48,229 nt of DNA from Minisyncoccota bacterium (lineage in GTDB: Bacteria; Patescibacteriota; Minisyncoccia; Phycocordibacterales; UBA2100), in NCBI GenBank assembly GCA_035500505.1, contig DATJXE010000004.1:1-48229 (forward strand). The letters are read 5' to 3'. Position 1 is the first letter of the stretch. Every line of letters starts with the position of its first letter. The position numbers and the translations under genes are program-made. This document shows positions 1 through 27,408 of this stretch, one piece after another. The notes under the pieces are model-generated. The model made no database searches and was not told the DNA's origin. It worked only from the letters and a program-made list of their open reading frames with translations.

Positions 1-3000
1 TCTGCAATATGCGGCGCGAAGGGAGCAAGGAGCGTGAGGAAGGTGTTCCATTCGGTCCGCGACACGGAACCTGCCTTTTCCATGGCGTTGAGCAGTATCA
101 TGAGCGCGCTGATGGCGGTGTTGAATTTAAGCGCGTCGATATCTTCACCGACTTTTTTTATGGTCCGATGAAAAAGCGGAGAAAGTTTGCTTTCCGATGA
201 TGTTACCGATTCGCTCGATCTGACCACCCGTTCGATAAAACGTCGCACGCCGACTACTCCGTCTGGGTTCCAGGGATAGCTCGCAACCTCGTTATACGGG
301 CCTATAAAGGCCAAATACATGCGAACGGTGTCTGCTCCCAGCCTGTTCACGACATCGTCCGGATCGACGACATTCCCCTTCGATTTGCTCATTTTTTGCC
401 CATCCGGGCCGAGGATAATGCCCCGGTTCATGCGCCTCGTATACGGCTCGTTGTCCGCTACCAGTCCGGCATCAAAGAGCGCCTTGTGCCAAAAACGACT
501 GTAGAGCAAGTGCATCGTCGTGTGCTCCGCGCCGCCGGAATAAAGATCGATAGGCATCCAGTTCGCTTGTTTATCTTTCGCAGCAAACTCTTTTTCATTT
601 TTCGGATCCGTGTAGCGCAAAAAATACCACGACGAATCGACGAACGTATCGAGGGTATCCGTCTCGCGCTCCGCATCGCCTTTGCACTGCGGACACTTCA
701 CGTTCACGAACGGCTTCACTTTTGCGAGCGGCGACTTCCCTTTTCCATCCGGCAAAAAGTCGTCCGTCTCGGGCAAAAGAACGGGCAACTCCCCTTCCGG
801 GACCGGCACGGTGCCGCATTTCGGACAATGAATGATCGGGATCGGTGCGCCCCAGTACCTCTGGCGCGACACTATCCAATCGCGCAATCTGTACGTCGTT
901 TTCTTCCGGCCGAATTCCTCGGTCATTGCCTGTCGTGCTTCTTGGCTCGACATGCCGTTGAAATTCCCGGAGTTCGTCAGGTATCCCTCGCCGACATACC
1001 AGGATTTTCCTTGTAATCGTTGCAGCACGAGAGAAAAGTCCCCTCGATTGATGAATGCCGTCATGTCTTTTGAGTCCACCCAGACAACTTTTTGTATAGA
1101 TGCTTCCTCTTGGGAAACTTCGATGCGCGCACCGCTTTTGAGCTTGAAGAGCAAAGGAGTGAAGTGACCGACGACATTTCTCTTCCGGAAGGCACCGTAA
1201 AAATTGCTGTGAACAACGCCTCCTAGCTCTTTGACGAATTCCAAATCTGTGTAGCCAGTTTCCTCGCGTATTTCGCGTTCTGCTGCTTGCTGTGGCGTCT
1301 CACCTTTCTCGATCTGACCTCCAACGAACCCATGAGCGTCTCCGGCGCTGTACGCTAGGCACAGATACGAGGGATCTTTCCAATGTTCCACAACAGCAAT
1401 GATTGCGACGCGTTGCACTCCCGGAATGTCCGTTCGGAACGCATCCGGCCCGCTCGTGCGCACGACCAGGGGTTCAACAACCTCTTTGATAGGTAAATCA
1501 AATTTCTTCGCGAATTCAAAGTCGCGTTCGTCGTGCGCGGGCACGGCCATGATGGCACCGGTGCCATAGCCTGCGAGTACGTAATCGGCGATGAAAAGCG
1601 GGATCTTCTCCCCTGTCGCAGGGTTGAGAGCCTCAACTCCTTCGAGCTTCACGCCCGTCTTTTCTTTCGTCTCCTGCTGTCGTTCAAGTTCAGTCTTCTT
1701 GCTCGCCTGCGTCACATACTTCGCGACTTCGTCGTTATTCTTGAGAACGTTCTTATGTTCCAGCGCGAGCGTCACCCACGGATGCTCCGGCGCGAGCACG
1801 AGGTACGTGGCGCCGAAAAGAGTGTCCACGCGTGTCGTGAAGACGCGGATTGTTGGCCGAAGCCACATTAATACATCCGGTTCTTTGTCACCGGTAAAAT
1901 GTTCTTTTGCGGCCATAGTTTCTACAAGCTGCGCGTCAATTTTAGGCGCAAGCCAACGTATATAGTCGATGCGGGTCTGGGGTTCTTGCAGGTCAGAAAG
2001 GAGCAAGCGGCTCGGAGCAAGCTTCTTTATCAATTCGTAGTCGATGTCCCATTTAAAAGTATCGTGAAATTCTCGCTTTTGGGCATTCGGAAACGCTGGG
2101 TCAATCGCGGGAGCGATAAGTACGAGTCGTGCGATCTTCTTCTTTGATTTCATCAGCGCCTTCATCGCGACAATGGCACCAAGGCTATGTCCTACGACGA
2201 TCGTGTCTTCGTCCCAATCGGTTGCCGCGAGAGCCGTCGCAACCTGTTCCTCTTCGACCGGATGATCCGTGTTCGGAAGATCTGGAATAACGACCGTGTG
2301 TCCGAATTCTTCGAGGTGTTTTCTATACCAGTGATTGCGCGGTCGGTCAGCGCGACTCGTATATCCGTGTAAGTACAAATAGGTATATTTCTTTCCAAGG
2401 TCCAGGCCAAAATCTATTTCTGCACCTTCGGAGCGGCCGATCCAATTGCGCTGGGATTCCTTGATCGGCTCCGGCCAGTCCAATTTTTCTAGATCGTCGA
2501 CGAGCCGGTCGGCGTAGTCGGTAATCTTGATGTTCCACTGCAGCATTTCTTTCTGCACGACCTCGTGTCCACAGCGCTCGCACTTGCCGTCCACCACCTG
2601 CTCGTTGGCGAGCACGGTCTTGTCGTTCGGGCACCAGTTGACCATTGTTTCCTTCCGATAGACGAGATCCGACTTGTAGAGCTGAAGAAAAAGCCACTGC
2701 GTCCACTTGTAGTAGTCCGGATGGCAAGTGACGACCTCGCGCGACCAATCAAAAGACGCGCCCATCGAACGGATCTGCTTGCGCATGTACTCGATGTTGT
2801 CTTCCGTCCAATCGCGCGGATTCACTTTGTTCTTTATCGCTGCGTTCTCCGCAGGCAATCCGAATGCGTCGAACCCTATTGGGTAGAGCACGTTCTTCCC
2901 TTCCATCCGCAATTTACGGGCCAAAATATCCGGCACGGCAAATGAATACCAGTGCCCAACATGGAGGTTGCCCGAAGGATACGGAAACTCGACGAGCAGA

Positions 3001-3107
3001 TAGAAATTAGCTTGACCGGAAACGTCGTCCTTGGTCTCGTAGAGGTTCGCTTTCGCCCAGGCTTCCTGCCATTTTTTCTCGATTTTCTTGTGGTCGTACG
3101 ACTTCAT
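1..3107 (-). CDS. leuS: leucyl-tRNA synthetase, C-terminus cut by the window edge (1035 codons visible), with two in-frame inserted domains
   Basis: Absent from the ORF track because it has no stop inside the window. My minus-strand translation from the ATG at 3105-3107 (in-frame TAG upstream at 3117-3119) stays open to nt 1. Motifs read: PYPSGNLHVGH (HIGH), TTRVDTLFGATY and GTGAIMAVPAHDERD (CP1 editing), RDWIVSRQRYWGAPIP, QKMSKSKGN (KMSKS), and Cys-pair zinc knuckles CERCG and CPKCG..CPQCKG. Confidence 0.92.
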   Translation of the reverse strand, partial: MKSYDHKKIEKKWQEAWAKANLYETKDDVSGQANFYLLVEFPYPSGNLHVGHWYSFAVPDILARKLRMEGKNVLYPIGFDAFGLPAENAAIKNKVNPRDWTEDNIEYMRKQIRSMGASFDWSREVVTCHPDYYKWTQWLFLQLYKSDLVYRKETMVNWCPNDKTVLANEQVVDGKCERCGHEVVQKEMLQWNIKITDYADRLVDDLEKLDWPEPIKESQRNWIGRSEGAEIDFGLDLGKKYTYLYLHGYTSRADRPRNHWYRKHLEEFGHTVVIPDLPNTDHPVEEEQVATALAATDWDEDTIVVGHSLGAIVAMKALMKSKKKIARLVLIAPAIDPAFPNAQKREFHDTFKWDIDYELIKKLAPSRLLLSDLQEPQTRIDYIRWLAPKIDAQLVETMAAKEHFTGDKEPDVLMWLRPTIRVFTTRVDTLFGATYLVLAPEHPWVTLALEHKNVLKNNDEVAKYVTQASKKTELERQQETKEKTGVKLEGVEALNPATGEKIPLFIADYVLAGYGTGAIMAVPAHDERDFEFAKKFDLPIKEVVEPLVVRTSGPDAFRTDIPGVQRVAIIAVVEHWKDPSYLCLAYSAGDAHGFVGGQIEKGETPQQAAEREIREETGYTDLEFVKELGGVVHSNFYGAFRKRNVVGHFTPLLFKLKSGARIEVSQEEASIQKVVWVDSKDMTAFINRGDFSLVLQRLQGKSWYVGEGYLTNSGNFNGMSSQEARQAMTEEFGRKKTTYRLRDWIVSRQRYWGAPIPIIHCPKCGTVPVPEGELPVLLPETDDFLPDGKGKSPLAKVKPFVNVKCPQCKGDAERETDTLDTFVDSSWYFLRYTDPKNEKEFAAKDKQANWMPIDLYSGGAEHTTMHLLYSRFWHKALFDAGLVADNEPYTRRMNRGIILGPDGQKMSKSKGNVVDPDDVVNRLGADTVRMYLAFIGPYNEVASYPWNPDGVVGVRRFIERVVRSSESVTSSESKLSPLFHRTIKKVGEDIDALKFNTAISALMILLNAMEKAGSVSRTEWNTFLTLLAPFAPHIA
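993..1472 (-). other. LeuRS in-frame insertion 2: Nudix hydrolase domain
   Basis: About aa 546-705, between FDLPIKEVVE and GYLTNSGNFNG. Contains a complete Nudix box, GGQIEKGETPQQAAEREIREETGY (Gx5Ex7REUxEExGU), encoded at about 1251-1319. Confidence 0.75.
1854..2408 (-). other. LeuRS in-frame insertion 1: alpha/beta serine-hydrolase domain (YdeN/RBBP9-like)
   Basis: About aa 234-418, between RSEGAEIDF and IRVFTTRVDT, where E. coli LeuRS (from memory) has about 9 residues. Contains YLYLHGYTSRADRPRNHWY, VVIPDLPNTDHP and the nucleophile elbow VGHSLGA. The Ser codon is confirmed at 2184-2186. This stretch looks more AT-rich than the flanking core. Confidence 0.6.
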
Positions 3108-3388: not shown

Positions 3389-4339
3389 CTATTTGGTGGG
3401 CGGATAGCGCGAGGGGTCGATGGTGCGTGAGAAGCACTGCGTGCCCGCCTCGTGATACCACGAATCGCTCATATCGCGCGCGCCTGGCGAACCCGAAGGG
3501 ATCGGTATCGTGAGTTCATTTTGCGTGATGGCGTTGGGGTCCGTTACCGAATTGAAGGTCGCGCACAACTTGAACCCGAGTTTTCCGAGTACTTCGTATT
3601 GGTACGGCTGTCCCGTCTGTGTATCGTTCGGCACGCTGACGCCCGCGAGCGGATCGTTGAGCTCGTTCAGCGTCGTCGGCAAAACGCGCTTCTGTTGCCA
3701 GTACGTCACGACCTCGCTTTGGATGATCTGCAGGTCGTTCACTTTCTGTTCGTCGAGCATGTAGTCACGCGCTTGCATCGGCGTTCCGATGATGAGAAAG
3801 CCGCTCCCGACAGTAAGAATAATAAGGATGCCACAGCCCCATGCGATGGCTTTCGCTTTTTGGGCGTTCTCTTCCCAGTAACCGCCTAGATCGGCGATGA
3901 AATGCAAGAAGCCCGCGCCGGCGACGAGCAGCACGAGTAGCACCTTAAGGATGAATCGTTCGGATATCTCGCCGTTGAGGAAATACATGATGAGCGTTAT
4001 CAAATCCACGGCGAGCGTCGCCGCAGCGACGAAGAGCGTCAGGTAGAGCGCCCATCGGCGGACCCAAATATCGCGGCGGGAAGGATCCTTCTTGATCGAA
4101 TTGTGAATGACGCGTATGAGGACGAGGAATATCGGGAAAAGGACGATGAGCGACGCCATCTCGTAGGAAACACCGCCTTGATACGGATTTCCGGAATAGT
4201 ACGAAGCGAGCTGGTCGGGAAAGGCGTAATTGATATAGTCGAAGACGAGCGCGAGGAACGAGAACACGCTCACGTACAGCGTCACCAGCGCCCCTGCCCA
4301 CAAAAAGAAATCCTTCGGCGTGACCCTTGGTTTGTCCAT
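3389..4339 (-). CDS. multi-pass membrane protein (N-terminal region resembles DUF5671) with an extracytoplasmic C-terminal domain
   Basis: 316-aa ORF with four or more hydrophobic helices. The DUF5671 assignment is from memory of Parcubacteria-type proteins and is not verified. Confidence 0.6.
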   Translation of the reverse strand: MDKPRVTPKDFFLWAGALVTLYVSVFSFLALVFDYINYAFPDQLASYYSGNPYQGGVSYEMASLIVLFPIFLVLIRVIHNSIKKDPSRRDIWVRRWALYLTLFVAAATLAVDLITLIMYFLNGEISERFILKVLLVLLVAGAGFLHFIADLGGYWEENAQKAKAIAWGCGILIILTVGSGFLIIGTPMQARDYMLDEQKVNDLQIIQSEVVTYWQQKRVLPTTLNELNDPLAGVSVPNDTQTGQPYQYEVLGKLGFKLCATFNSVTDPNAITQNELTIPIPSGSPGARDMSDSWYHEAGTQCFSRTIDPSRYPPTK

Positions 4340-4653: not shown

Positions 4654-5763
4654 CTAGCCGTGTTTGAACTCCATCACGTCGCCATCCTGAACGACATACT
4701 CCTTCCCCTCCGAGCGTACCAACCCCTTTTCGCGAGCCTTCACCCACGAGCCACATTCGAGCAGCGTGTCCCAGTGGATAACGTCGGCCCGGATGAACTT
4801 GTCTCGGAAATCGGTATGGATGGCGGCGCCCGCATCCGGCGCTCTGTCCCCGCGATGGACGGTCCATGCGCGAGATTCATCTTCCCCTGTCGTGAAGAAC
4901 GAGATGAGTTTGAGGAGCGAATACCCGGCTTTGATAAGTGCGTCGATGCCGTCCTCGCTCATGCCGAGTTCCCGTCTAAAATCCATGCGTTCGTCGTCGT
5001 GCACGTCGGAAAGCTCACGTTCGACCCCGGCATCCAGCATGACATAGCCTGCATCGGAGGAATCGAGGAAATTCTTGAGGGCTTTCCAACGCTCCCCCGC
5101 CTCGGCGTCAACGTTCAAGACACCGCTTTTCTTGTTCAAGATATACAGGACCGGTTTCAGCGTAAGAAGATGAAGACCGCGTATCGTCGCCTGCTCTTCC
5201 TCGCTAAGCGGCACGGAACGGGCGGTCATACCGAGCTTGAGCGCGGGCACGACCTTCTCCAGAGCGTCCCGTTCCGCTATCGCCTCTTTGTCGCCGCTTT
5301 TGGCGTCGCGTGAGACGCGTTCCAGGCGTTTTTCGGCCGTTTGCATGTCCGCGAGCGCAAGTTCGAGATCGATGACCTCGATATCGCGTAAAGGATCGAC
5401 TTCGCCTTGTACGTGGTGCACGTCCTCGTCATCGAATACGCGCACGACCTCTGCGATGGCGTCCACCTCGCGGATATGCGAAAGGAACTGGTTGCCCAAG
5501 CCTTCGCCCTCAGATGCGCCTTTTACCAAACCCGCGATATCCACGAATTCGACGGCCGCCGGTATTTTCTTTGCCGATCGCGACATCGCAGCGAGCTTGT
5601 CGAGGCGAACGTCAGGGACCGCGACGACGCCAACGTTGGGATCGATGGTATTGAACGGATAATTCTCCGCAGGCACGCCTTTTTTCGTGAGTGCATTAAA
5701 AAGCGTCGATTTGCCGACGTTGGGAAGTCCGACGATGCCGATGGAGAGTGCCATGGAGCGCAA
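4654..5763 (-). CDS. ychF: ribosome-binding ATPase YchF
   Basis: G1 motif GIVGLPNVGKSTLFNALT, DIAGLVKGASEGEGLGNQFL, and a C-terminal TGS-like end VVQDGDVMEFK. Confidence 0.95.
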   Translation of the reverse strand: MRSMALSIGIVGLPNVGKSTLFNALTKKGVPAENYPFNTIDPNVGVVAVPDVRLDKLAAMSRSAKKIPAAVEFVDIAGLVKGASEGEGLGNQFLSHIREVDAIAEVVRVFDDEDVHHVQGEVDPLRDIEVIDLELALADMQTAEKRLERVSRDAKSGDKEAIAERDALEKVVPALKLGMTARSVPLSEEEQATIRGLHLLTLKPVLYILNKKSGVLNVDAEAGERWKALKNFLDSSDAGYVMLDAGVERELSDVHDDERMDFRRELGMSEDGIDALIKAGYSLLKLISFFTTGEDESRAWTVHRGDRAPDAGAAIHTDFRDKFIRADVIHWDTLLECGSWVKAREKGLVRSEGKEYVVQDGDVMEFKHG

Positions 5764-6866: not shown

Positions 6867-8492
<1,626 letters not shown>

Positions 8493-8518
8493 TTACTTGT
8501 TTTTTTATTGCTGACAAA

Positions 8519-9421
8519 TCATTTCATCGCCTCGATGCCGGACGTAATCTCAGAAACTTCTCGCGTGATGGCGGCCTGGCGGACTTTGTTGAATACACGG
8601 GTGAAGTCCTTCGCCTTCTCTTTCGCCTTGTCGGTCGCGCTTTTCATCGCGACCATGCGGGCCGAGTGTTCGGACGCTTTCGATTCGAGAAGTGCATGGA
8701 ATACGGCGATGTTGAGAAGCCTGGGCAAGAGTTCTGCGAGCACCGAATCGGCATCGGGTTCGATGGTATATGCCGCAGGTCGCGCCGCCGCTTCCGATTG
8801 CTGCGGCGCATAACGGCCGCGCACGGGGCGAATGCCTTCGACTATTCTTTTCATCGTTTCGGGCTTGATGGGAATTATCTGGTGTACTGTGGGCGCCTGT
8901 TCGAACGTGGAGATGAAATTCTGGTAGACGACGAAAGCCGAGGTAATGTCGTCACGGCGGATGATGTCTTTCGTGACTTCCTGCACTTCCGATTCGGCGA
9001 TGTCATCGCTCACGTTCGTTTTGTTGAGCCCCATCGTGAAGCCGCGCGAGGCGAAGAAATCCCCGCCGCGGCGGCCGAACGCGTAGATGAGGACGTCTTT
9101 TTTGTCGTATCCGCCGACGAGCGTTTGCGCGCGACGAATGACGTTGCTGTTCAGTGAACCTGCGAGCCCTTTGTCGCTCGTGATGACGATGACCGCTGTT
9201 TTCCCCGCACGTTCCTGCATGAGCGGATGCCGTGCGACATCGGCGGTGCCGGACAAACGCTCCAGGACGGAAAGCGCGGCCGCCGCATACGCCCGGCCGC
9301 CAAGCGCGCGTTCTTGTGCTTTGCGCATCTTCACGGCGGAAACCGCCTCCATGGCATGCGTTACAGTCCCAGTCTTTTTGTACGAGAGTATCTTGAGCTT
9401 TATGTTCTTGAGAGATGCCAT
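8519..9421 (-). CDS. atpG: F1 ATP synthase gamma subunit
   Basis: N-terminus SLKNIKLKILSYKKT and C-terminus AAITREVSEITSGIEA, characteristic of gamma. Operon position agrees. Confidence 0.93.
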   Translation of the reverse strand: MASLKNIKLKILSYKKTGTVTHAMEAVSAVKMRKAQERALGGRAYAAAALSVLERLSGTADVARHPLMQERAGKTAVIVITSDKGLAGSLNSNVIRRAQTLVGGYDKKDVLIYAFGRRGGDFFASRGFTMGLNKTNVSDDIAESEVQEVTKDIIRRDDITSAFVVYQNFISTFEQAPTVHQIIPIKPETMKRIVEGIRPVRGRYAPQQSEAAARPAAYTIEPDADSVLAELLPRLLNIAVFHALLESKASEHSARMVAMKSATDKAKEKAKDFTRVFNKVRQAAITREVSEITSGIEAMK

Positions 9422-9422
9422 G

Positions 9423-9857
9423 CTATGCCATTAGACGATCCTTATATTTGGTGAGAAAGGGCTGGAATTGAGAATGCATCGGTTTAGGAAATTCGCCTAT
9501 CTTAAACCATCGTACCTCAAGAAACTTGTTCGGTTCACCATTCTTCACCTTCGTCGGATCAACTTTTACTTTGAAGTCGAACGATATCCAGTGGGTTTTC
9601 GTTCCCTCTTGTTCTCGAAAGATGTCTCGATATCCTAGAAATTCCTGCTCCACTATGTTGGTACAATATTCTTCAGCTATTTCTTTTTTCAGAGTTCCTT
9701 CAACAGTTTCATCAAAATCAACACTTCCCCCTCCGACATCCCATCTGCCGTGCTCGTCACGACAGTTGTTACTTCGCAAGCTCATAAGGACGTTGCCCTT
9801 GCCATCGTGGCAGAAGTACGAGACTGTGACGCCCGGATAATCGGCTCCTTTTCTCAT
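9423..9857 (-). CDS. Nudix-family hydrolase inserted between atpA and atpG
   Basis: Nudix-like box GGSVDFDETVEGTLKKEIAEEY (Gx5Ex7[K]EIxEE). Gaps to atpA and atpG are 3 nt and 1 nt. A spot count of one 60-nt line gives about 42% GC, against 52-63% in atpA lines. Confidence 0.8.
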   Translation of the reverse strand: MRKGADYPGVTVSYFCHDGKGNVLMSLRSNNCRDEHGRWDVGGGSVDFDETVEGTLKKEIAEEYCTNIVEQEFLGYRDIFREQEGTKTHWISFDFKVKVDPTKVKNGEPNKFLEVRWFKIGEFPKPMHSQFQPFLTKYKDRLMA

Positions 9858-9860
9858 ATA

Positions 9861-11429
9861 CTACTTGCTCGCGAACAGTTCCTTGTGCGCCAAGCGGAAT
9901 TCTTCGGTCGCTTTTGCCAGAGTTTTCTTGGAGTCGTCCGAGAGTTGGCCGGTCTTCTTTATCTCGCCAAGGACTTTCTTGTACTGCGCATCCACGAAAT
10001 CGACGAACTTCGAAGCGGTTTCGCGTACGCGGGCGACCGACACGTCGCCAAAAAGCTTGAGCGATGCGGCGTAGAGCATCGCGACCTGTTTTTCGAGCGG
10101 AATAGGCGCGCCGTTCTTCTGCTTGAGAAGTTCGATCATGCGCTGGCCGCTTGCGAGCTGGTCCGCGGTCGCCTTATCCAAATCTTGCGCGAACTGGGTG
10201 AACGCTTCGAGATCGCGGAACTGTGCGAGCTCGAGCTTGAGGCCGCCGGCGACCGATTTCATCGCTTTCGTCTGGGCGGAAGAACCGACGCGGGAGACCG
10301 AGATACCAACGTCGATAGCGGGCCGCACGCCTTTGTTGAAAAGATCGGCCACAAGAAATATCTGGCCGTCGGTGATGGAGATGACGTTGGTCGGAATGTA
10401 GGCCGAAACGTCGCCTTCCTGCGTCTCGATGATGGGGAGCGCGGTGATGGAGCCTCCGCCTTTCTCTTCGCTCAAGCGGCACGCGCGTTCGAGCAAGCGG
10501 GAGTGTAGGTAGAAAATGTCGCCCGGATATGCTTCGCGGCCCGGCGGGCGGCGCAGGAGGAGCGAGAGTTCGCGGTATGCGACCGCCTGCTTGGAAAGAT
10601 CGTCGTAGATGATGAGCACGTCGCGGCCCTTGTCCATGAAATACTCGCCTATCGCGACACCGGAAAACGGCGCGAGGTATTGGAGCGCGGCGGGAGCTGA
10701 AGCCGGCGCGTCGACGATGATAGTGTAGTCGAGCGCACCCGCTTCGCGCAATTGCTGTGCGATGCGCGCGGTCTTCGATTCCTTCTGCCCGATGGCGACA
10801 TAAATACAAACGGGGCGCTTCCCTTCGGGTTCGTTCAATTGGTTGATGATGGTGTCGATGGCGATGGTCGTCTTCCCTGTTGCGCGGTCGCCGATCAAGA
10901 GCTCGCGCTGGCCGCGGCCGATCGGGATCATCGCGTCTATCGCGACGATGCCCGTTGCGAGCGGTACAGAAACGCCCTTGCGGTCAATAACGCCCGCAGC
11001 CTGTCGCTCCACCGGCATCATCGTCGGTTTTTTGAAAGGGCCTTTGCCGTCCTGCGGCTCGCCCAACGCGTTGACGACGCGACCGAGCAATTCATCGCCC
11101 GAAGGCACGCTCAACACGCGGCCGGCCGATTTGACCGTCATGCCTTCGACAACGCGCGAAGTATCGCCGAGGATGGCGGCGCGCACGCCGTCTTCTTCCA
11201 GGTTCAAGACGAGGCCGTACAGTTCACCTTGCGCCTCCATCGCGTGCGCAAGCTTCTTTCCTTTGGTTTCTTCAAAGGTCAATATCTCGCTCATTACCAC
11301 TTTTGAAAGTCCGTCGATCTCGACGACGCCGTCCCCCACCGAGACGACTTTCCCGGCATGGGTACCCTCATGCGCGGGCTTAAACTTCTCTATTTCCTTT
11401 ACGATCTTTTCGACGATTGCATTATCCAT
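9861..11429 (-). CDS. atpA: F1 ATP synthase alpha subunit
   Basis: Walker [16 protein letters not shown]. The 522-aa ORF resembles alpha subunits along its full length. Confidence 0.97.
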
Positions 11430-11432
11430 ACA

Positions 11433-11819
11433 TCAGCGTACGGCCAGATTATACATGTCCAATAAGGATTTCTTAAAACTTTTGTCGACAAGCACCCCTT
11501 TGCCTTCGAGCCGCCAACCGCCGATGAGCGACTCGTCGAGTTGAACATCGAGGTTCTTCGAATCCGCGCCTATCTCCTCCAGAATGGCCTTCACCTCTCG
11601 TTTTGCCTTGTGCGTGTCTTTTTCGCGCGCGACGGAAACGATGATCGCGTTCTTTTTCATCTCACGGGTCGCAAGCCGCTCGAAAGCTCGCGCGATGCGG
11701 GGCAGGAGCGCTTCTCGACCGCGCACCTTGAGCGATTCGACGAGCGCATGCAGCGCCTTTTTCGGCTCCATGCCTTCTTCTACCAATTGCCAAAGGGCCT
11801 GCGCGTAGCTTTTTTCCAT
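11433..11819 (-). CDS. atpH: F1 ATP synthase delta (OSCP) subunit, short form (128 aa)
   Basis: Lies between atpF and atpA. C-terminal DESLIGGWRLEGKGVLVDKSFKKSL matches the delta signature. Confidence 0.8.
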   Translation of the reverse strand: MEKSYAQALWQLVEEGMEPKKALHALVESLKVRGREALLPRIARAFERLATREMKKNAIIVSVAREKDTHKAKREVKAILEEIGADSKNLDVQLDESLIGGWRLEGKGVLVDKSFKKSLLDMYNLAVR

Positions 11820-11822
11820 AGG

Positions 11823-12269
11823 TTATGCGTGCTCCTTCAATATCTTCTCCGCGGCGAGCATCGCCGCACGTGCGATCTCCTTGGAGCTTTCCTGCATCGC
11901 AAGGCGCTTCGCTTCCTCGGCATGAGCCTGCGCTTCCTTCAGGATCGCACTGGCTTTTGCTTCCGCCGCTTTTGTCGATTCAGCGGTCACCTCGCTTGCG
12001 CGACTCCGTGCCGCCGCGACAAGACCTTCAGCCTCTTTTGAAGCATCAGCGACCATCCCTTCGCCCTGCGCTTTTGCGTCCTCAAGACGCTTATTTGCCT
12101 CTTGTGCAAGCCGCACTCCTTCGGCGACTTTTTCGCGCCGTTCGTCGATGATACGGAGGATGGGACGATAGAGAAAGTATGTGAGCGCGGCAAGCAGCAG
12201 CACAAAGTTCACCGCTTGTATCAAAAGCAGATGCCAGTCGACCCCGAATGCCGAGAATAACGCGCTCAT
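11823..12269 (-). CDS. atpF: Fo ATP synthase subunit b
   Basis: A single N-terminal TM helix followed by a long charged A/E/K-rich helix. Operon position agrees. Confidence 0.88.
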   Translation of the reverse strand: MSALFSAFGVDWHLLLIQAVNFVLLLAALTYFLYRPILRIIDERREKVAEGVRLAQEANKRLEDAKAQGEGMVADASKEAEGLVAAARSRASEVTAESTKAAEAKASAILKEAQAHAEEAKRLAMQESSKEIARAAMLAAEKILKEHA

Positions 12270-12282
12270 ATCCTATCACGCC

Positions 12283-12582
<300 letters not shown>

Positions 12583-13341
12583 TCAATGCGCCTCGGCTCC
12601 GTGCGGCTGCATGATCGCGATCTTGATAAAGTAGAGGGTGAGGAGGGCGAAGATGGCGGCTTGCACGAACCCGACGAATATTTCGAAGGCCATGACGGGG
12701 ACCGGACCCACGAATGGGATGAAGTACGTGACGACGAGAATGAGCACTTCGCCTGCAAAAATGTTACCGAAAAGACGGAACGAGAACGCGATGATGCGCG
12801 CGAATTCAGAGAATATTTCGATGATGCCGACAAAAAACTGGATGAAACCGTTGCGCACATTGATAAATTTGCCGGTATATTTCCAAAAACCTATCACGAC
12901 GATACCTGTTGTTTCGATGACCACGAACGAAAGGATGGCTAGCATCAGCGTGACATTGAGGTCGGTGTTTACGGAGCGGAAAAGCGGGACGAATGTTCCA
13001 ACCGGATCAAAAAGCCCTAGAGAGCCGACTCCGGGCAAAAACTCGAGAAGATTGGATGTAAAAACAAAAAGAAAAATGGTGGTGAGATACGGAAAAAATA
13101 TGCGCGCAAGTTTGCGACTCTCCAACGTTTCGGCGACGTAATCGTAGACGAATTCGACGAGCCATTCAAAAAGTAGTTGGAAACGGCTCGGCGTGAGTTT
13201 CAAGCGAGAGCCGATGAGCACCGCAACGAAGAGAAGGATGACCAGCACCGCCCAACTCGTGACGAGCGTATTGGTTATGTGAATGCCAAAAAGTGTGCCG
13301 ATCTGTTCTGGCGCAAGGATTACATTTATACCGGATTGCAT
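12583..13341 (-). CDS. atpB: Fo ATP synthase subunit a
   Basis: The conserved Arg region FSFRLFGNIFAGEVL, five to six TM helices, and first position in the operon. Confidence 0.93.
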   Translation of the reverse strand: MQSGINVILAPEQIGTLFGIHITNTLVTSWAVLVILLFVAVLIGSRLKLTPSRFQLLFEWLVEFVYDYVAETLESRKLARIFFPYLTTIFLFVFTSNLLEFLPGVGSLGLFDPVGTFVPLFRSVNTDLNVTLMLAILSFVVIETTGIVVIGFWKYTGKFINVRNGFIQFFVGIIEIFSEFARIIAFSFRLFGNIFAGEVLILVVTYFIPFVGPVPVMAFEIFVGFVQAAIFALLTLYFIKIAIMQPHGAEAH

Positions 13342-14077: not shown

Positions 14078-14950
14078 TCACCCCTCTTTCATGAACCCCC
14101 GCACCACCTTCGCGATCTTTTTTTCTCCTCCGCGGAAGCTATGCCCAACTCTCGGAATGATAACAACCTCGTCTTCGGGCTTCAAGTGCTTTTGGAACCA
14201 CGCGGCGATCTCCCTTGCAGGACGTTTCGTGTGTTCTTCCGCACCGGCGAGAAAGACCGCTGTTGGAGTCGTCACAGATCTGACTATCCGAGAGATTTTG
14301 TTCGGTTGGATATAAGTAAAGATTTCTTCGACGCTGTTAGGAGTGTACAAACTCAAGAATCGTTGGGCATCGCACACGAACCACGGCCCCAACTCTTTTG
14401 GCATCAGTCCGTGAGGTTTGCCCGAACGAACGAGCTTTCGAGCGTACGCGACCGATCTTTTTAATCTCCCGTTCCTGTCCTCCTCCACTGCGCACGCATA
14501 ATCGCTCAAAGGACCAAGTAAAAATATCCCTTTTACTCCTTTTTCCCGCCTGTTCTTGTACGCCCAATAGTATGCCTTTTGCGCGCCCGTCGAGTGTCCG
14601 GCAAGATATATTTCTTTGACCTTTGCGCGCTTGACGAGATTTATCGCACCTTGAACATCGTCCGCCGATTCAGTAAAAACCTCATGTCCGGCGCCGGAGC
14701 GAATCCACTGCGTTTCACCTCGACGTTTGCGTTTAACTTCTCCTACTTGCTCAAAGCCGCGATTGTTGAACGTGATGACGGCTGTTTCCGGTCCAACGAG
14801 CTCCTTGATGAGTCTCGACATGCTGAACGCCGAGGCGGTTAGGCCATGTATAAAAATAATGGCTCGCTTGGGCTTCTTCGGCCCGAACCAAAGCCCGTTC
14901 AGGATGTAGTGCTTCGGCGTCGTTATCTGTACGACGTATGCCGGAGTCAT
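14078..14950 (-). CDS. alpha/beta hydrolase (DUF1749-like)
   Basis: IIFIHGL oxyanion region and the nucleophile elbow LAGHSTGAQ. Confidence 0.75.
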   Translation of the reverse strand: MTPAYVVQITTPKHYILNGLWFGPKKPKRAIIFIHGLTASAFSMSRLIKELVGPETAVITFNNRGFEQVGEVKRKRRGETQWIRSGAGHEVFTESADDVQGAINLVKRAKVKEIYLAGHSTGAQKAYYWAYKNRREKGVKGIFLLGPLSDYACAVEEDRNGRLKRSVAYARKLVRSGKPHGLMPKELGPWFVCDAQRFLSLYTPNSVEEIFTYIQPNKISRIVRSVTTPTAVFLAGAEEHTKRPAREIAAWFQKHLKPEDEVVIIPRVGHSFRGGEKKIAKVVRGFMKEG

Positions 14951-20610: not shown

Positions 20611-20685
20611 TGGTGACCCTACGGGGAATCGAACCCCGCTTTCGACCGTGAGAGGGTCGCGTCCTAGCCGATAGACGATAGGGCC
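20611..20685 (-). tRNA. tRNA-Glu (anticodon CUC), CCA encoded
   Basis: Manual cloverleaf: GGCCCTA/TAGGGTC acceptor stem, GTCT/GGAC D stem, CGACC-CTCTCAC-GGTCG anticodon arm, CGGGG-TTCGATT-CCCCG T arm, then A-CCA. Confidence 0.9.
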
Positions 20686-26555: not shown

Positions 26556-26597
26556 AAAAGGACGAAAACCCGCACAAGGCGGGTTCCGTCATTTTTT
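26556..26597. terminator. bidirectional intrinsic terminator between guaA/element A and tRNA-Ala
   Basis: Stem ACCCGC-ACAAG-GCGGGT at 26568-26584, flanked by an A-run and a T-run. Confidence 0.6.
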
Positions 26598-26667
26598 GGA
26601 CCCACGGGGAGTCGAACCCCGACCTGTTCCATGCCATGGAACCGTTCTACCGCTATACTATGGGCCC
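26597..26667 (-). tRNA. tRNA-Ala (anticodon GGC), no encoded CCA
   Basis: Manual fold: GGGCCCA/TGGGTCC acceptor stem with G3:U70, GTTCC-ATGGCAT-GGAAC anticodon arm, CGGGG-TTCGACT-CCCCG T arm. The D stem has one A:A mismatch. Confidence 0.85.
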
Positions 26668-27336: not shown

Positions 27337-27408
27337 GCTCCCATAGTTTAATGGATAGAACGCGGGATTCCGGATCCCGTAATCGAGGTTCGATTCCTCG
27401 TGGGAGCA
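27337..27408 (+). tRNA. tRNA-Arg (anticodon CCG), no encoded CCA
   Basis: Manual fold: GCTCCCA/TGGGAGC acceptor stem, GTTT/GAAC D stem, CGGGA-TTCCGGA-TCCCG anticodon arm, CGAGG-TTCGATT-CCTCG T arm. Confidence 0.9.

Follow-up and report, generated by a model that had tools for sequence, protein, structure and literature searches.

The leuS gene in the stretch of DNA analyzed here encodes a bacterial-type leucyl-tRNA synthetase (LeuRS) whose CP1 editing domain holds two further enzyme domains, a serine hydrolase of the YdeN/RBBP9 type and a Nudix domain. Judged by their sequences, both nested domains are apparently complete and catalytically competent. The stretch, which we call the window, is positions 1 to 48,229 of contig DATJXE010000004.1 from the Minisyncoccota bacterium assembly GCA_035500505.1. 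In the literature searched the architecture is undescribed, yet it is abundant in public sequence databases and widespread in Patescibacteria. Its parts lie as follows:

1 to 3107, minus strand: leuS, bacterial-type LeuRS, 1035 codons (open frame, TIGR00396, match to T. thermophilus LeuRS)
2952 to 2963, minus strand: HIGH motif of the synthetic site (HVGH, amino acids 49-52; coordinate check)
1851 to 2399, minus strand: insert 1, a complete YdeN/RBBP9-type alpha/beta serine hydrolase (amino acids 237-419, 183 residues; Pfam, profile search, AlphaFold2, Foldseek)
1821 to 1838, minus strand: T-rich editing peptide TTRVDT (amino acids 424-429; coordinate check)
1473 to 1850, minus strand: core of the CP1 editing domain between the inserts (amino acids 420-545; PF13603 at 191 bits, conserved motifs)
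1521 to 1541, minus strand: PAHDERD (amino acids 523-529), in which D529 is the equivalent of E. coli D345 (coordinate check)
999 to 1472, minus strand: insert 2, a complete Nudix-fold domain in a CP1 surface loop (amino acids 546-703, 158 residues; PF00293, AlphaFold2, Foldseek)
381 to 395, minus strand: KMSKS motif (amino acids 905-909; coordinate check)

From nt 3107 to nt 1 the minus strand reads as 1035 codons with zero stops. The frame leaves the window at nt 1, and the C-terminus of the protein (about 90 amino acids) is missing, cut by the window start. Despite this truncation and two internal interruptions, the protein scores 901.8 bits against the TIGR00396 model leuS_bact, for which the cut-off is 548.4, and T. 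thermophilus LeuRS matches it at E = 4e-206. The class I signatures HIGH and KMSKS are both present. An earlier reading of this DNA, made from sequence only, had claimed an uninterrupted minus-strand LeuRS frame with all its landmarks; the length of the frame, the model score and the located motifs bear this out. The source belongs to the Patescibacteria and is of the Kaiserbacteria type, and the open reading frame probably encodes its working LeuRS and probably the only one. The one leuS locus returned from CP066682.1, a complete Kaiserbacteria chromosome of 859 kb, bears the inserts, a weak hint that the insert-bearing copy is the sole LeuRS.

Alignment to T. thermophilus LeuRS (2v0c) is interrupted at exactly two points: residues 1-236 of the window protein pair with 1-237 of the T. 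thermophilus enzyme, 420-545 with 243-363, and 704-913 with 377-592. The inserts are therefore amino acids 237-419 and 546-703, the first spanning LGKK to WLRPT and the second PLVV to GKSW. Anchor spacing tells the same story, with 202 amino acids from WIGRSxG to TTRxDT in the window versus 24 in plain LeuRS, and 216 from PAHDxxD to YRLRDW versus 65-73. The protein shares HIGH, KMSKS, the T-rich peptide and the editing Asp with the bacterial enzymes of T. thermophilus (2v0c, 1h3n) and E. coli (4aq7), and it aligns with them end to end save at the two insertion points. It differs in the 183-residue and 158-residue enzyme domains added to CP1 and in being without the leucine-specific domain of T. 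thermophilus LeuRS; that domain (T. thermophilus residues 592-637) has no counterpart in window positions 381-998 and is skipped just before KMSKS.

Insert 1 takes the place of a beta-hairpin turn, and the hairpin ends 4 residues before the T-rich peptide. Insert 2 starts 17 residues past the editing Asp, near position 142 of 185 in the Pfam model of the editing domain, hence not at the edge of CP1. Both fall within 993-2408, the interval marked by the sequence-only reading, which had put the two inserts at the edges of the editing domain; for insert 2 this does not hold. The CP1 signature peptides are kept across the homologue family, which means that the editing site has not been supplanted by the inserts.

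The architecture recurs. Among the top 120 database clusters, which are 59-71% identical and come from NCBI, JGI, ENA and Logan assemblies on contigs of up to 481 kb, 112 have both inserts, 7 are missing only the Nudix domain and 1 is missing only the hydrolase. Their source names are Candidatus Kaiserbacteria, Parcubacteria or Paceibacterota.

Insert 1 matches the Pfam families Ser_hydrolase (PF06821; 35.0 bits, gathering score 22) and Abhydrolase_6 (PF12697; 41.4 bits, gathering score 26.3). Searched against the Protein Data Bank (PDB), its family profile found B. subtilis YdeN at 3e-22 and human RBBP9 at 8.5e-19. The AlphaFold2 model has a pLDDT of 96.7, and its best Foldseek matches are 1uxo (YdeN), 7oex, 9fcr and 2qs9, with TM scores of 0.74-0.82 (0.78/0.81 for YdeN). 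In the model the outer strands (residues 2-5 and 190-193) would correspond to the LeuRS hairpin strands, which fits a domain set into the hairpin turn. The predicted catalytic residues are:

2175 to 2192, minus strand: nucleophile elbow GHSLGA (amino acids 306-311), with S308 as predicted catalytic Ser (aligns with RBBP9 S75)
1983 to 1985, minus strand: E375, the likely triad acid (aligns with RBBP9 D138)
1899 to 1901, minus strand: H403, the triad histidine (aligns with RBBP9 H165)

By the RBBP9 alignment the triad acid is E375, and not D372 alone. S308 is kept in 119 of the 120 top clusters and H403 in all 120. The elbow Ser is found in all 270 full-length relatives of the domain, and 19 partial matches have Ser or a gap at that position. 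Position 375 is Asp or Glu in 119 of the 120 clusters and in 274 of 289 relatives (226 Asp, 48 Glu); the window has Glu. Compared with YdeN (1uxo) and RBBP9 (2qs9, 7oex), the insert is alike in fold (TM 0.74-0.81), size, HG oxyanion motif, GxSxG elbow and Ser-Asp/Glu-His triad. It differs in being nested in another enzyme, in sharing only 18-22% identity with them, and in not conserving Glu108 and Tyr99 of RBBP9. YdeN itself was deposited (1uxo) merely as a 'putative hydrolase'.

For insert 2, the Pfam NUDIX family (PF00293) gave 53.3 bits against a gathering score of 21.1, and the AlphaFold2 model has a pLDDT of 92.0. Its signature is complete, and the stretch GGQIEKGETPQQAAEREIREETGY at amino acids 596-619 contains it:

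1251 to 1319, minus strand: Nudix box GX5EX7REUXEEXGU (amino acids 597-619), every position matched (coordinate check)

Seven residues of the box (G597, E603, R611, E612, E615, E616 and G618) are each kept in 108-113 of 113 copies, and the same seven are near-invariant in 113 + 82 = 195 copies embedded in LeuRS. The top match in a profile search was the Aquifex Ap4A hydrolase 3i7u (E = 1.4e-8). At E <= 0.001 Foldseek matched 573 PDB entries; the 50 listed are Nudix-family proteins without exception. The first is the E. faecalis MutT/Nudix protein 2azw; other close compact folds are the Aquifex Ap4A hydrolase (TMt 0.81, root mean square deviation 2.5), T. thermophilus Ndx1 (an Ap6A enzyme), CT771 and RppH. 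The domain thus resembles Aquifex 3i7u, T. thermophilus Ndx1 (1vc8), Chlamydia CT771 and E. coli RppH in its complete Nudix box and compact fold, with TMt of 0.78-0.81 and root mean square deviations of 2.5-2.8 against 3i7u and 1vc8. It differs from these single-domain hydrolases in its nesting within CP1 and its roughly 20% identity, and other Nudix classes score almost equally.

The inserts diverge faster than their host, with mean column identities of 0.56-0.59 against 0.76-0.86 for the synthetase core. Catalytic residues that stay fixed amid this faster divergence are what one sees in enzymes selected for catalysis. The sequence-only reading had called the two domains a serine hydrolase and a Nudix domain, had asked whether other genomes keep the same insertions, and had reckoned that loss of catalytic residues among homologues would point to decayed fusions. 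Its domain calls agree with Pfam matches above the gathering scores; the intact frame recurs in more than 110 clusters from many assemblies; and the elbow Ser, the triad His and the REUxEE glutamates of the Nudix box are near-invariant.

These observations also deal with the possibility that the protein is an artefact or a relic: an assembly chimera, a frameshifted mosaic or the remnant of a dead fusion. Nothing beyond the unusual length of the protein speaks for this, and we regard it as next to impossible. The frame is uninterrupted, and the architecture turns up in more than 110 clusters, with contigs as long as 481 kb and one complete chromosome among its sources; the residues needed for catalysis are conserved, and both domain models are confident (pLDDT 96.7 and 92.0). 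An assembly chimera or frameshift was rejected on the strength of this recurrence. We conclude that the protein is neither a chimera nor a decayed fusion, because the Pfam cut-offs are passed, the models are confident and the catalytic residues are kept in more than 110 clusters.

The inserts had also been described as more AT-rich than the synthetase core. At third codon positions this stands, with a GC content (GC3) of 0.52 for the inserts versus 0.68 for the core (window 999-2399 against the remaining leuS), but total GC differs little (0.507 versus 0.542; the window-wide standard deviation is 0.045). The lower GC3 of the inserts recurs in most homologues, in genomes of 28-57% GC. We read the offset as probably a sign of weaker codon constraint in less conserved segments, not of recent transfer; recent horizontal acquisition, which AT-richness might have suggested, was rejected on the grounds of this recurrence.

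The window protein is one member of a much wider set. Calling the points of insert 1 and insert 2 site 1 and site 2, we found by scanning species-representative genomes that the site-2 Nudix insert is not limited to Kaiserbacteria. Homologues scoring 80-173 bits on the insert profile occur at this same point in the LeuRS of Saccharibacteria, Moranbacteria and other Paceibacterota, and also in that of metagenome-assembled genomes labelled Clostridia, Bacillota and Bacilli. Other combinations of guests were seen in the following LeuRS loci (L) and proteins (P):

L019 (1805-5416) and most of P0121-P0136: complete HAM1/RdgB (188 bits) before the anticodon-binding domain, plus Nudix
Most of P0141-P0157 (about 1352 amino acids): Ser_hydrolase at site 2, plus HAM1
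L013 (Falkowbacteria): site 1 with a weak HAM1-like segment, site 2 with Ser_hydrolase
P0160, P0161 and P0205: PDDEXK_3, ASCH or nucleotidyltransferase at the LeuRS insert sites
P0245, P0261, P0273, P0290 and P0301: a tandem of Nudix and hydrolase, or Nudix present twice

Patescibacterial LeuRS is a mosaic host, and the combination seen in the window is a common one. The hydrolase of Falkowbacteria and of the 1352-amino-acid class lies at site 2 rather than at site 1, which implies that it was inserted into LeuRS independently. In many Patescibacteria LeuRS a HAM1/RdgB nucleoside triphosphate (NTP) pyrophosphatase domain (about 190 bits) is nested between the catalytic core and the anticodon-binding domain, where it comes paired with Nudix or the serine hydrolase. 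Among P0160, P0161 and P0205, site 1 holds a PDDEXK_3 nuclease-like domain (108 bits) or ASCH, and site 2 an NTP_transf_5-like nucleotidyltransferase. Databases label these proteins automatically and without consistency, as 'alpha/beta fold hydrolase', 'NUDIX domain-containing protein', 'RdgB/HAM1 family...' or 'class I tRNA ligase family protein', and at NCBI several of the HAM1-bearing ones go under 'RdgB/HAM1 family' rather than under LeuRS. P0247 (1004 amino acids) opens with the hydrolase domain and goes on to CP1 and the C-terminal LeuRS half; this could be a LeuRS divided at site 1, recalling the two-subunit LeuRS of Aquifex, or an artefact of gene calling. Two sets of candidates were discarded. 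Very long tblastn spans (L015, L035, L037, L038, L049, L052 and L073) were not giant inserts but neighbouring open reading frames merged, and P0361, a free-standing Ser_hydrolase plus Nudix protein, was rejected as a stand-alone version of the pair, its Nudix domain being of another subfamily (13 bits on the insert profile).

Outside LeuRS, the hydrolase is found both as a free-standing protein and in other hosts. A profile search with insert 1 over 1.84 billion representatives at E <= 1e-30 gave 79 clusters, made up of 49 LeuRS, 23 free-standing proteins of about 180 amino acids and 7 longer non-LeuRS proteins, including other hosts; LeuRS thus accounts for 49 of the 56 clusters in which the domain lies within a longer protein. 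The ends of the free-standing protein coincide with the boundaries of the LeuRS insert. We looked up eight free-standing copies, six of which were informative. Four of these six (L081, L088, L091 and L095) precede a same-strand leuS by 3-37 nt. At another locus (L092:3501-7549) a tight co-directional cluster runs from a YdeN-type hydrolase through a second hydrolase, a YbaK-type tRNA_edit gene and Ham1 to an archaeal-type leuS (PRK12300, 657 bits on a partial protein); a different LeuRS lineage thus has the familiar set of partners as individual genes. Nesting at alternative sites, together with adjacency across two LeuRS types, reads as a classical signature of functional partnership.

Two loci deserve mention beside these. 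L033:16203-16805 encodes a free-standing hydrolase of the YdeN type, which scores 95 bits on the insert profile and is located 5 kb downstream from a leuS with the Nudix insert only. At L095:2289-4558 a plain leuS starts 3 nt past the hydrolase gene and has SYDSVPQT in place of the T-rich FTTRPDT; this may be a decayed editing site beside its hydrolase partner, a single case. Decay of CP1 offset by the hydrolase was rejected as an explanation, since the window and three of four partner LeuRS have intact motifs, only that of L095 being degenerate.

The inserts might also be selfish or mobile in-frame elements that spread between essential genes as inteins or homing-endonuclease domains do, tolerated rather than useful. 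The many different essential hosts would fit such elements, as would the PDDEXK_3 nuclease-like domain at the same LeuRS site 1 in some genomes and the precise domain boundaries, equal to those of the free-standing protein. However, the Pfam list for the window protein, taken down to E = 0.1, contains no Hint, intein or LAGLIDADG family, and the junctions are without a Cys/Ser start and an HN end. Intein identity is ruled out on these two grounds, in agreement with the sequence-only reading, which had seen no intein signatures. Moreover, hundreds of copies attest strong purifying selection on the triad and on the Nudix box, the inserts are old, being common to clusters of only 59-71% identity, and the GC3 offset across genomes of 28-57% GC speaks against recent transfer. 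We consider a selfish origin of this kind very improbable.

What the hydrolase might do is best approached through its characterized relative; among relatives of insert 1, our literature search found biochemical characterization for RBBP9 only. RBBP9 is an aminopeptidase that needs a free alpha-amine, and its acyl-enzyme adducts carry Leu/Ile, Met, Phe, Tyr or Trp (PMC8866121). It is also described, by Shenoy 2020 as cited in PMC7730578, as activating the valine ester valacyclovir. Building on the architecture, folds, residue conservation, recurrence and association with leuS that we observe, we infer what activities, substrates and coupling to aminoacylation the nested domains might have.

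We lean, tentatively and without calling it probable, towards a clean-up unit tethered to LeuRS, formed by the hydrolase and Nudix modules, that would act on the products of aminoacylation. The serine hydrolase would attack an aminoacyl ester or amide with a free alpha-amine and form an acyl-enzyme as RBBP9 does; its likeliest substrate would be an aminoacyl-tRNA or aminoacyl-adenylate species that CP1 leaves uncleared. A deacylase or aminoacyl-adenylate hydrolase bound to LeuRS is the most attractive option because aminoacyl-ester hydrolysis is the chemistry of tRNA deacylation. The substrate of the Nudix domain would be a damaged NTP or an adenylylated by-product (Ap4A, for instance), hydrolyzed at the place where ATP is consumed. 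YdeN-type hydrolase, Nudix and HAM1/RdgB make up a pool of small modules from which the window has drawn one combination, and Patescibacteria, with at least one archaeal-type LeuRS lineage, tie these modules to LeuRS by nesting them at alternative sites or by keeping their genes directly upstream.

The suggestion in the sequence-only reading that the fusion provides extra proofreading fares differently for the two domains. For the serine hydrolase it is plausible, with indirect support from nesting at two or more LeuRS sites, the adjacency to leuS in four lineages, the cluster with a YbaK-type gene in a fifth, and the ValRS and AlaRS hosts; for the Nudix domain it is weak. Assignment of the Nudix subfamily was tried by sequence, profile and fold, and was given up: ApnA (diadenosine polyphosphate) hydrolases come out marginally best, with MutT-, ADPRase-, RppH- and NudI-like enzymes close behind, and as structural matches MutT-, NudI- and ADPRase-type enzymes nearly equal the ApnA hydrolases. 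Y637, 18 residues beyond the Nudix box, aligns with a Tyr of the Aquifex Ap4A hydrolase, and a Tyr in the X-loop downstream of the box reportedly correlates with ApnA hydrolase activity (PMC5389931). Ap4A clearance by this domain is only weakly suggested. As a side observation, a 177-residue Nudix-like open reading frame (25 bits) at L014:3592-4122 ends about 30-50 nt upstream of a Nudix-bearing leuS.

Several points weigh against the clean-up unit. The window protein and most partner LeuRS have an intact CP1, so that no editing gap is evident. The residues with which RBBP9 binds the alpha-amine, Glu108 and Tyr99, are not conserved in insert 1: the insert family has Lys343 and Ala/Gly/Pro opposite them, and only the neighbouring Arg is conserved (RBBP9 R109, by alignment R344 of the window). 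Alpha-amine recognition of the RBBP9 kind was rejected for insert 1 for this reason. On the Nudix side, the subfamily assignment does not discriminate, the Y637 column is mixed (77 Tyr and 31 Phe in the Kaiserbacteria-type set, 42 Phe and 35 Tyr in others), and at the loci examined no close free-standing relative of the Nudix insert was found beside leuS. One of the six informative free-standing hydrolases lies beside RmuC, not near leuS. Finally, close relatives of the hydrolase are also nested in AlaRS, ValRS, TsaD, Der/EngA, a formyltransferase, SecA and UvrA, and fusions with Adk, peptidases (S51, S9 and S33 families), a glyoxalase and other Nudix types are seen for others (nested or fused cases outside LeuRS are P0294, P0334, P0299, P0316, P0320, P0278, P0306 and P0389). 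The hydrolase is clearly a promiscuous nested guest of essential proteins, and this lowers the weight of the fusion evidence. Five of its partner proteins act on tRNA or the ribosome.

This promiscuity raises the possibility that the inserts are house-cleaning enzymes for unrelated substrates, carried piggy-back in long, essential, constitutively expressed and insertion-tolerant proteins of very small genomes. CP1 is itself an inserted, hinge-mounted domain, and LeuRS would be a mere carrier that guarantees expression. The range of hosts and fusion partners just listed is what such carriage would produce, and LeuRS also accommodates unrelated guests (HAM1, ASCH, PDDEXK_3 and a nucleotidyltransferase) in widely varying orders and copy numbers. 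HAM1 and Nudix are classical house-cleaning families, and it points the same way that the inserts diverge faster than the core and have a lower GC3. A pure carrier, however, does not predict the strong bias towards LeuRS (49 of 56 embedded clusters), nor the co-directional adjacency to leuS in four lineages and the cluster of YbaK-type gene and archaeal-type leuS, and the hydrolase was inserted independently at two sites within CP1 rather than anywhere in the protein. We hold mere carriage to be possible, if on balance unlikely.

The same RBBP9 data allow another reading, in which the hydrolase supplies amino acids. As an aminopeptidase it would free hydrophobic N-terminal residues, including Leu, from scavenged peptides and feed the most-used synthetase of an auxotroph; co-expression or fusion with LeuRS would match supply to demand. 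RBBP9 is indeed an aminopeptidase with trapped acyl adducts that include Leu/Ile (PMC8866121), fusions of insert relatives with S51, S9 and S33 peptidases exist, and adjacency to leuS is conserved. Against this, the alpha-amine-binding residues of RBBP9 are not conserved, co-expression would suffice without nesting in CP1, and the partnership with Nudix, HAM1 or a YbaK-type gene goes unexplained. We think amino-acid supply improbable as the function of the fusion.

The clean-up unit also has a bolder form, in which the YdeN/RBBP9-type hydrolase is an unrecognized class of editing enzyme for aminoacyl-tRNA or aminoacyl-adenylate. Working through an alpha/beta-hydrolase triad and an acyl-enzyme, it would have been recruited repeatedly to LeuRS, ValRS and AlaRS by ultrasmall bacteria and by an archaeal-type LeuRS lineage, in cis when nested or in trans when encoded in the same operon, with Nudix and HAM1 as synthetase-bound quality control. 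We would call this conceivable but distinctly unlikely.

The genes near leuS provide an ordinary chromosomal setting, S-adenosylhomocysteine hydrolase and PBP2 among them. Features located in the window are:

3389 to 4339, minus strand: DUF5671 protein, 316 amino acids, directly upstream of leuS
4654 to 5763: YchF
7104 to 13341: F1Fo ATP synthase genes
14078 to 14950, minus strand: a separate alpha/beta hydrolase of 290 amino acids (DUF1749, Hydrolase_4, Abhydrolase_6), of another subfamily than the LeuRS insert
20611 to 20685, minus strand: tRNA Glu(CTC) (Rfam)
26597 to 26667, minus strand: tRNA Ala(GGC) (Rfam)
27337 to 27408, plus strand: tRNA Arg(CCG) (Rfam)

An Rfam scan of the window at the gathering threshold gave no matches beyond the three tRNA genes.

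Bacterial aminoacyl-tRNA synthetases are usually described as being without the extra catalytic domains that eukaryotic ones have gained. IleRS-GNAT and NadM-Nudix are end-to-end fusions; here, by contrast, the host is a different one, LeuRS, and its editing domain encloses the two enzymes. An IleRS with a GNAT domain (NCBIfam model NF040702) is a precedent for a class I synthetase with a second catalytic domain, and NadM-Nudix (HIGH NTase-Nudix) is a HIGH-fold enzyme carrying a Nudix domain (PMC7824862). A full-text literature search found no description of LeuRS, or of any aminoacyl-tRNA synthetase, with nested Nudix, HAM1 or YdeN-type domains, and nothing relevant on synthetase architectures of the Candidate Phyla Radiation. 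The sequence-only statement that no LeuRS of this architecture had been described therefore holds for the literature searched.

Known editing modules belong to few folds, and the serine triad of an alpha/beta hydrolase would differ chemically from the known editing domains. By analogy, the proposed hydrolysis of aminoacyl esters alongside a synthetase would resemble the work of the trans-editing factors YbaK/ProXp (tRNA_edit, PF04073), AlaX and DTD. There is no sequence or fold relationship with these factors, and the link to them is the operon context at L092; in the Pfam scan of the window protein neither insert matched tRNA_edit/YbaK, tRNA_SAD/AlaX or DTD.

Overall, the window contains an essential synthetase with two further intact hydrolases inside its editing domain, part of a large combinatorial set of LeuRS mosaics. 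If the hydrolase does not act on aminoacyl esters, the protein would be a clear natural instance of minimal genomes lodging enzymes inside essential proteins, a case relevant to genome streamlining and to the engineering of domain insertions. If the editing proposal is true, it would give the YdeN family its first physiological function and would define a new structural class of editing factor.

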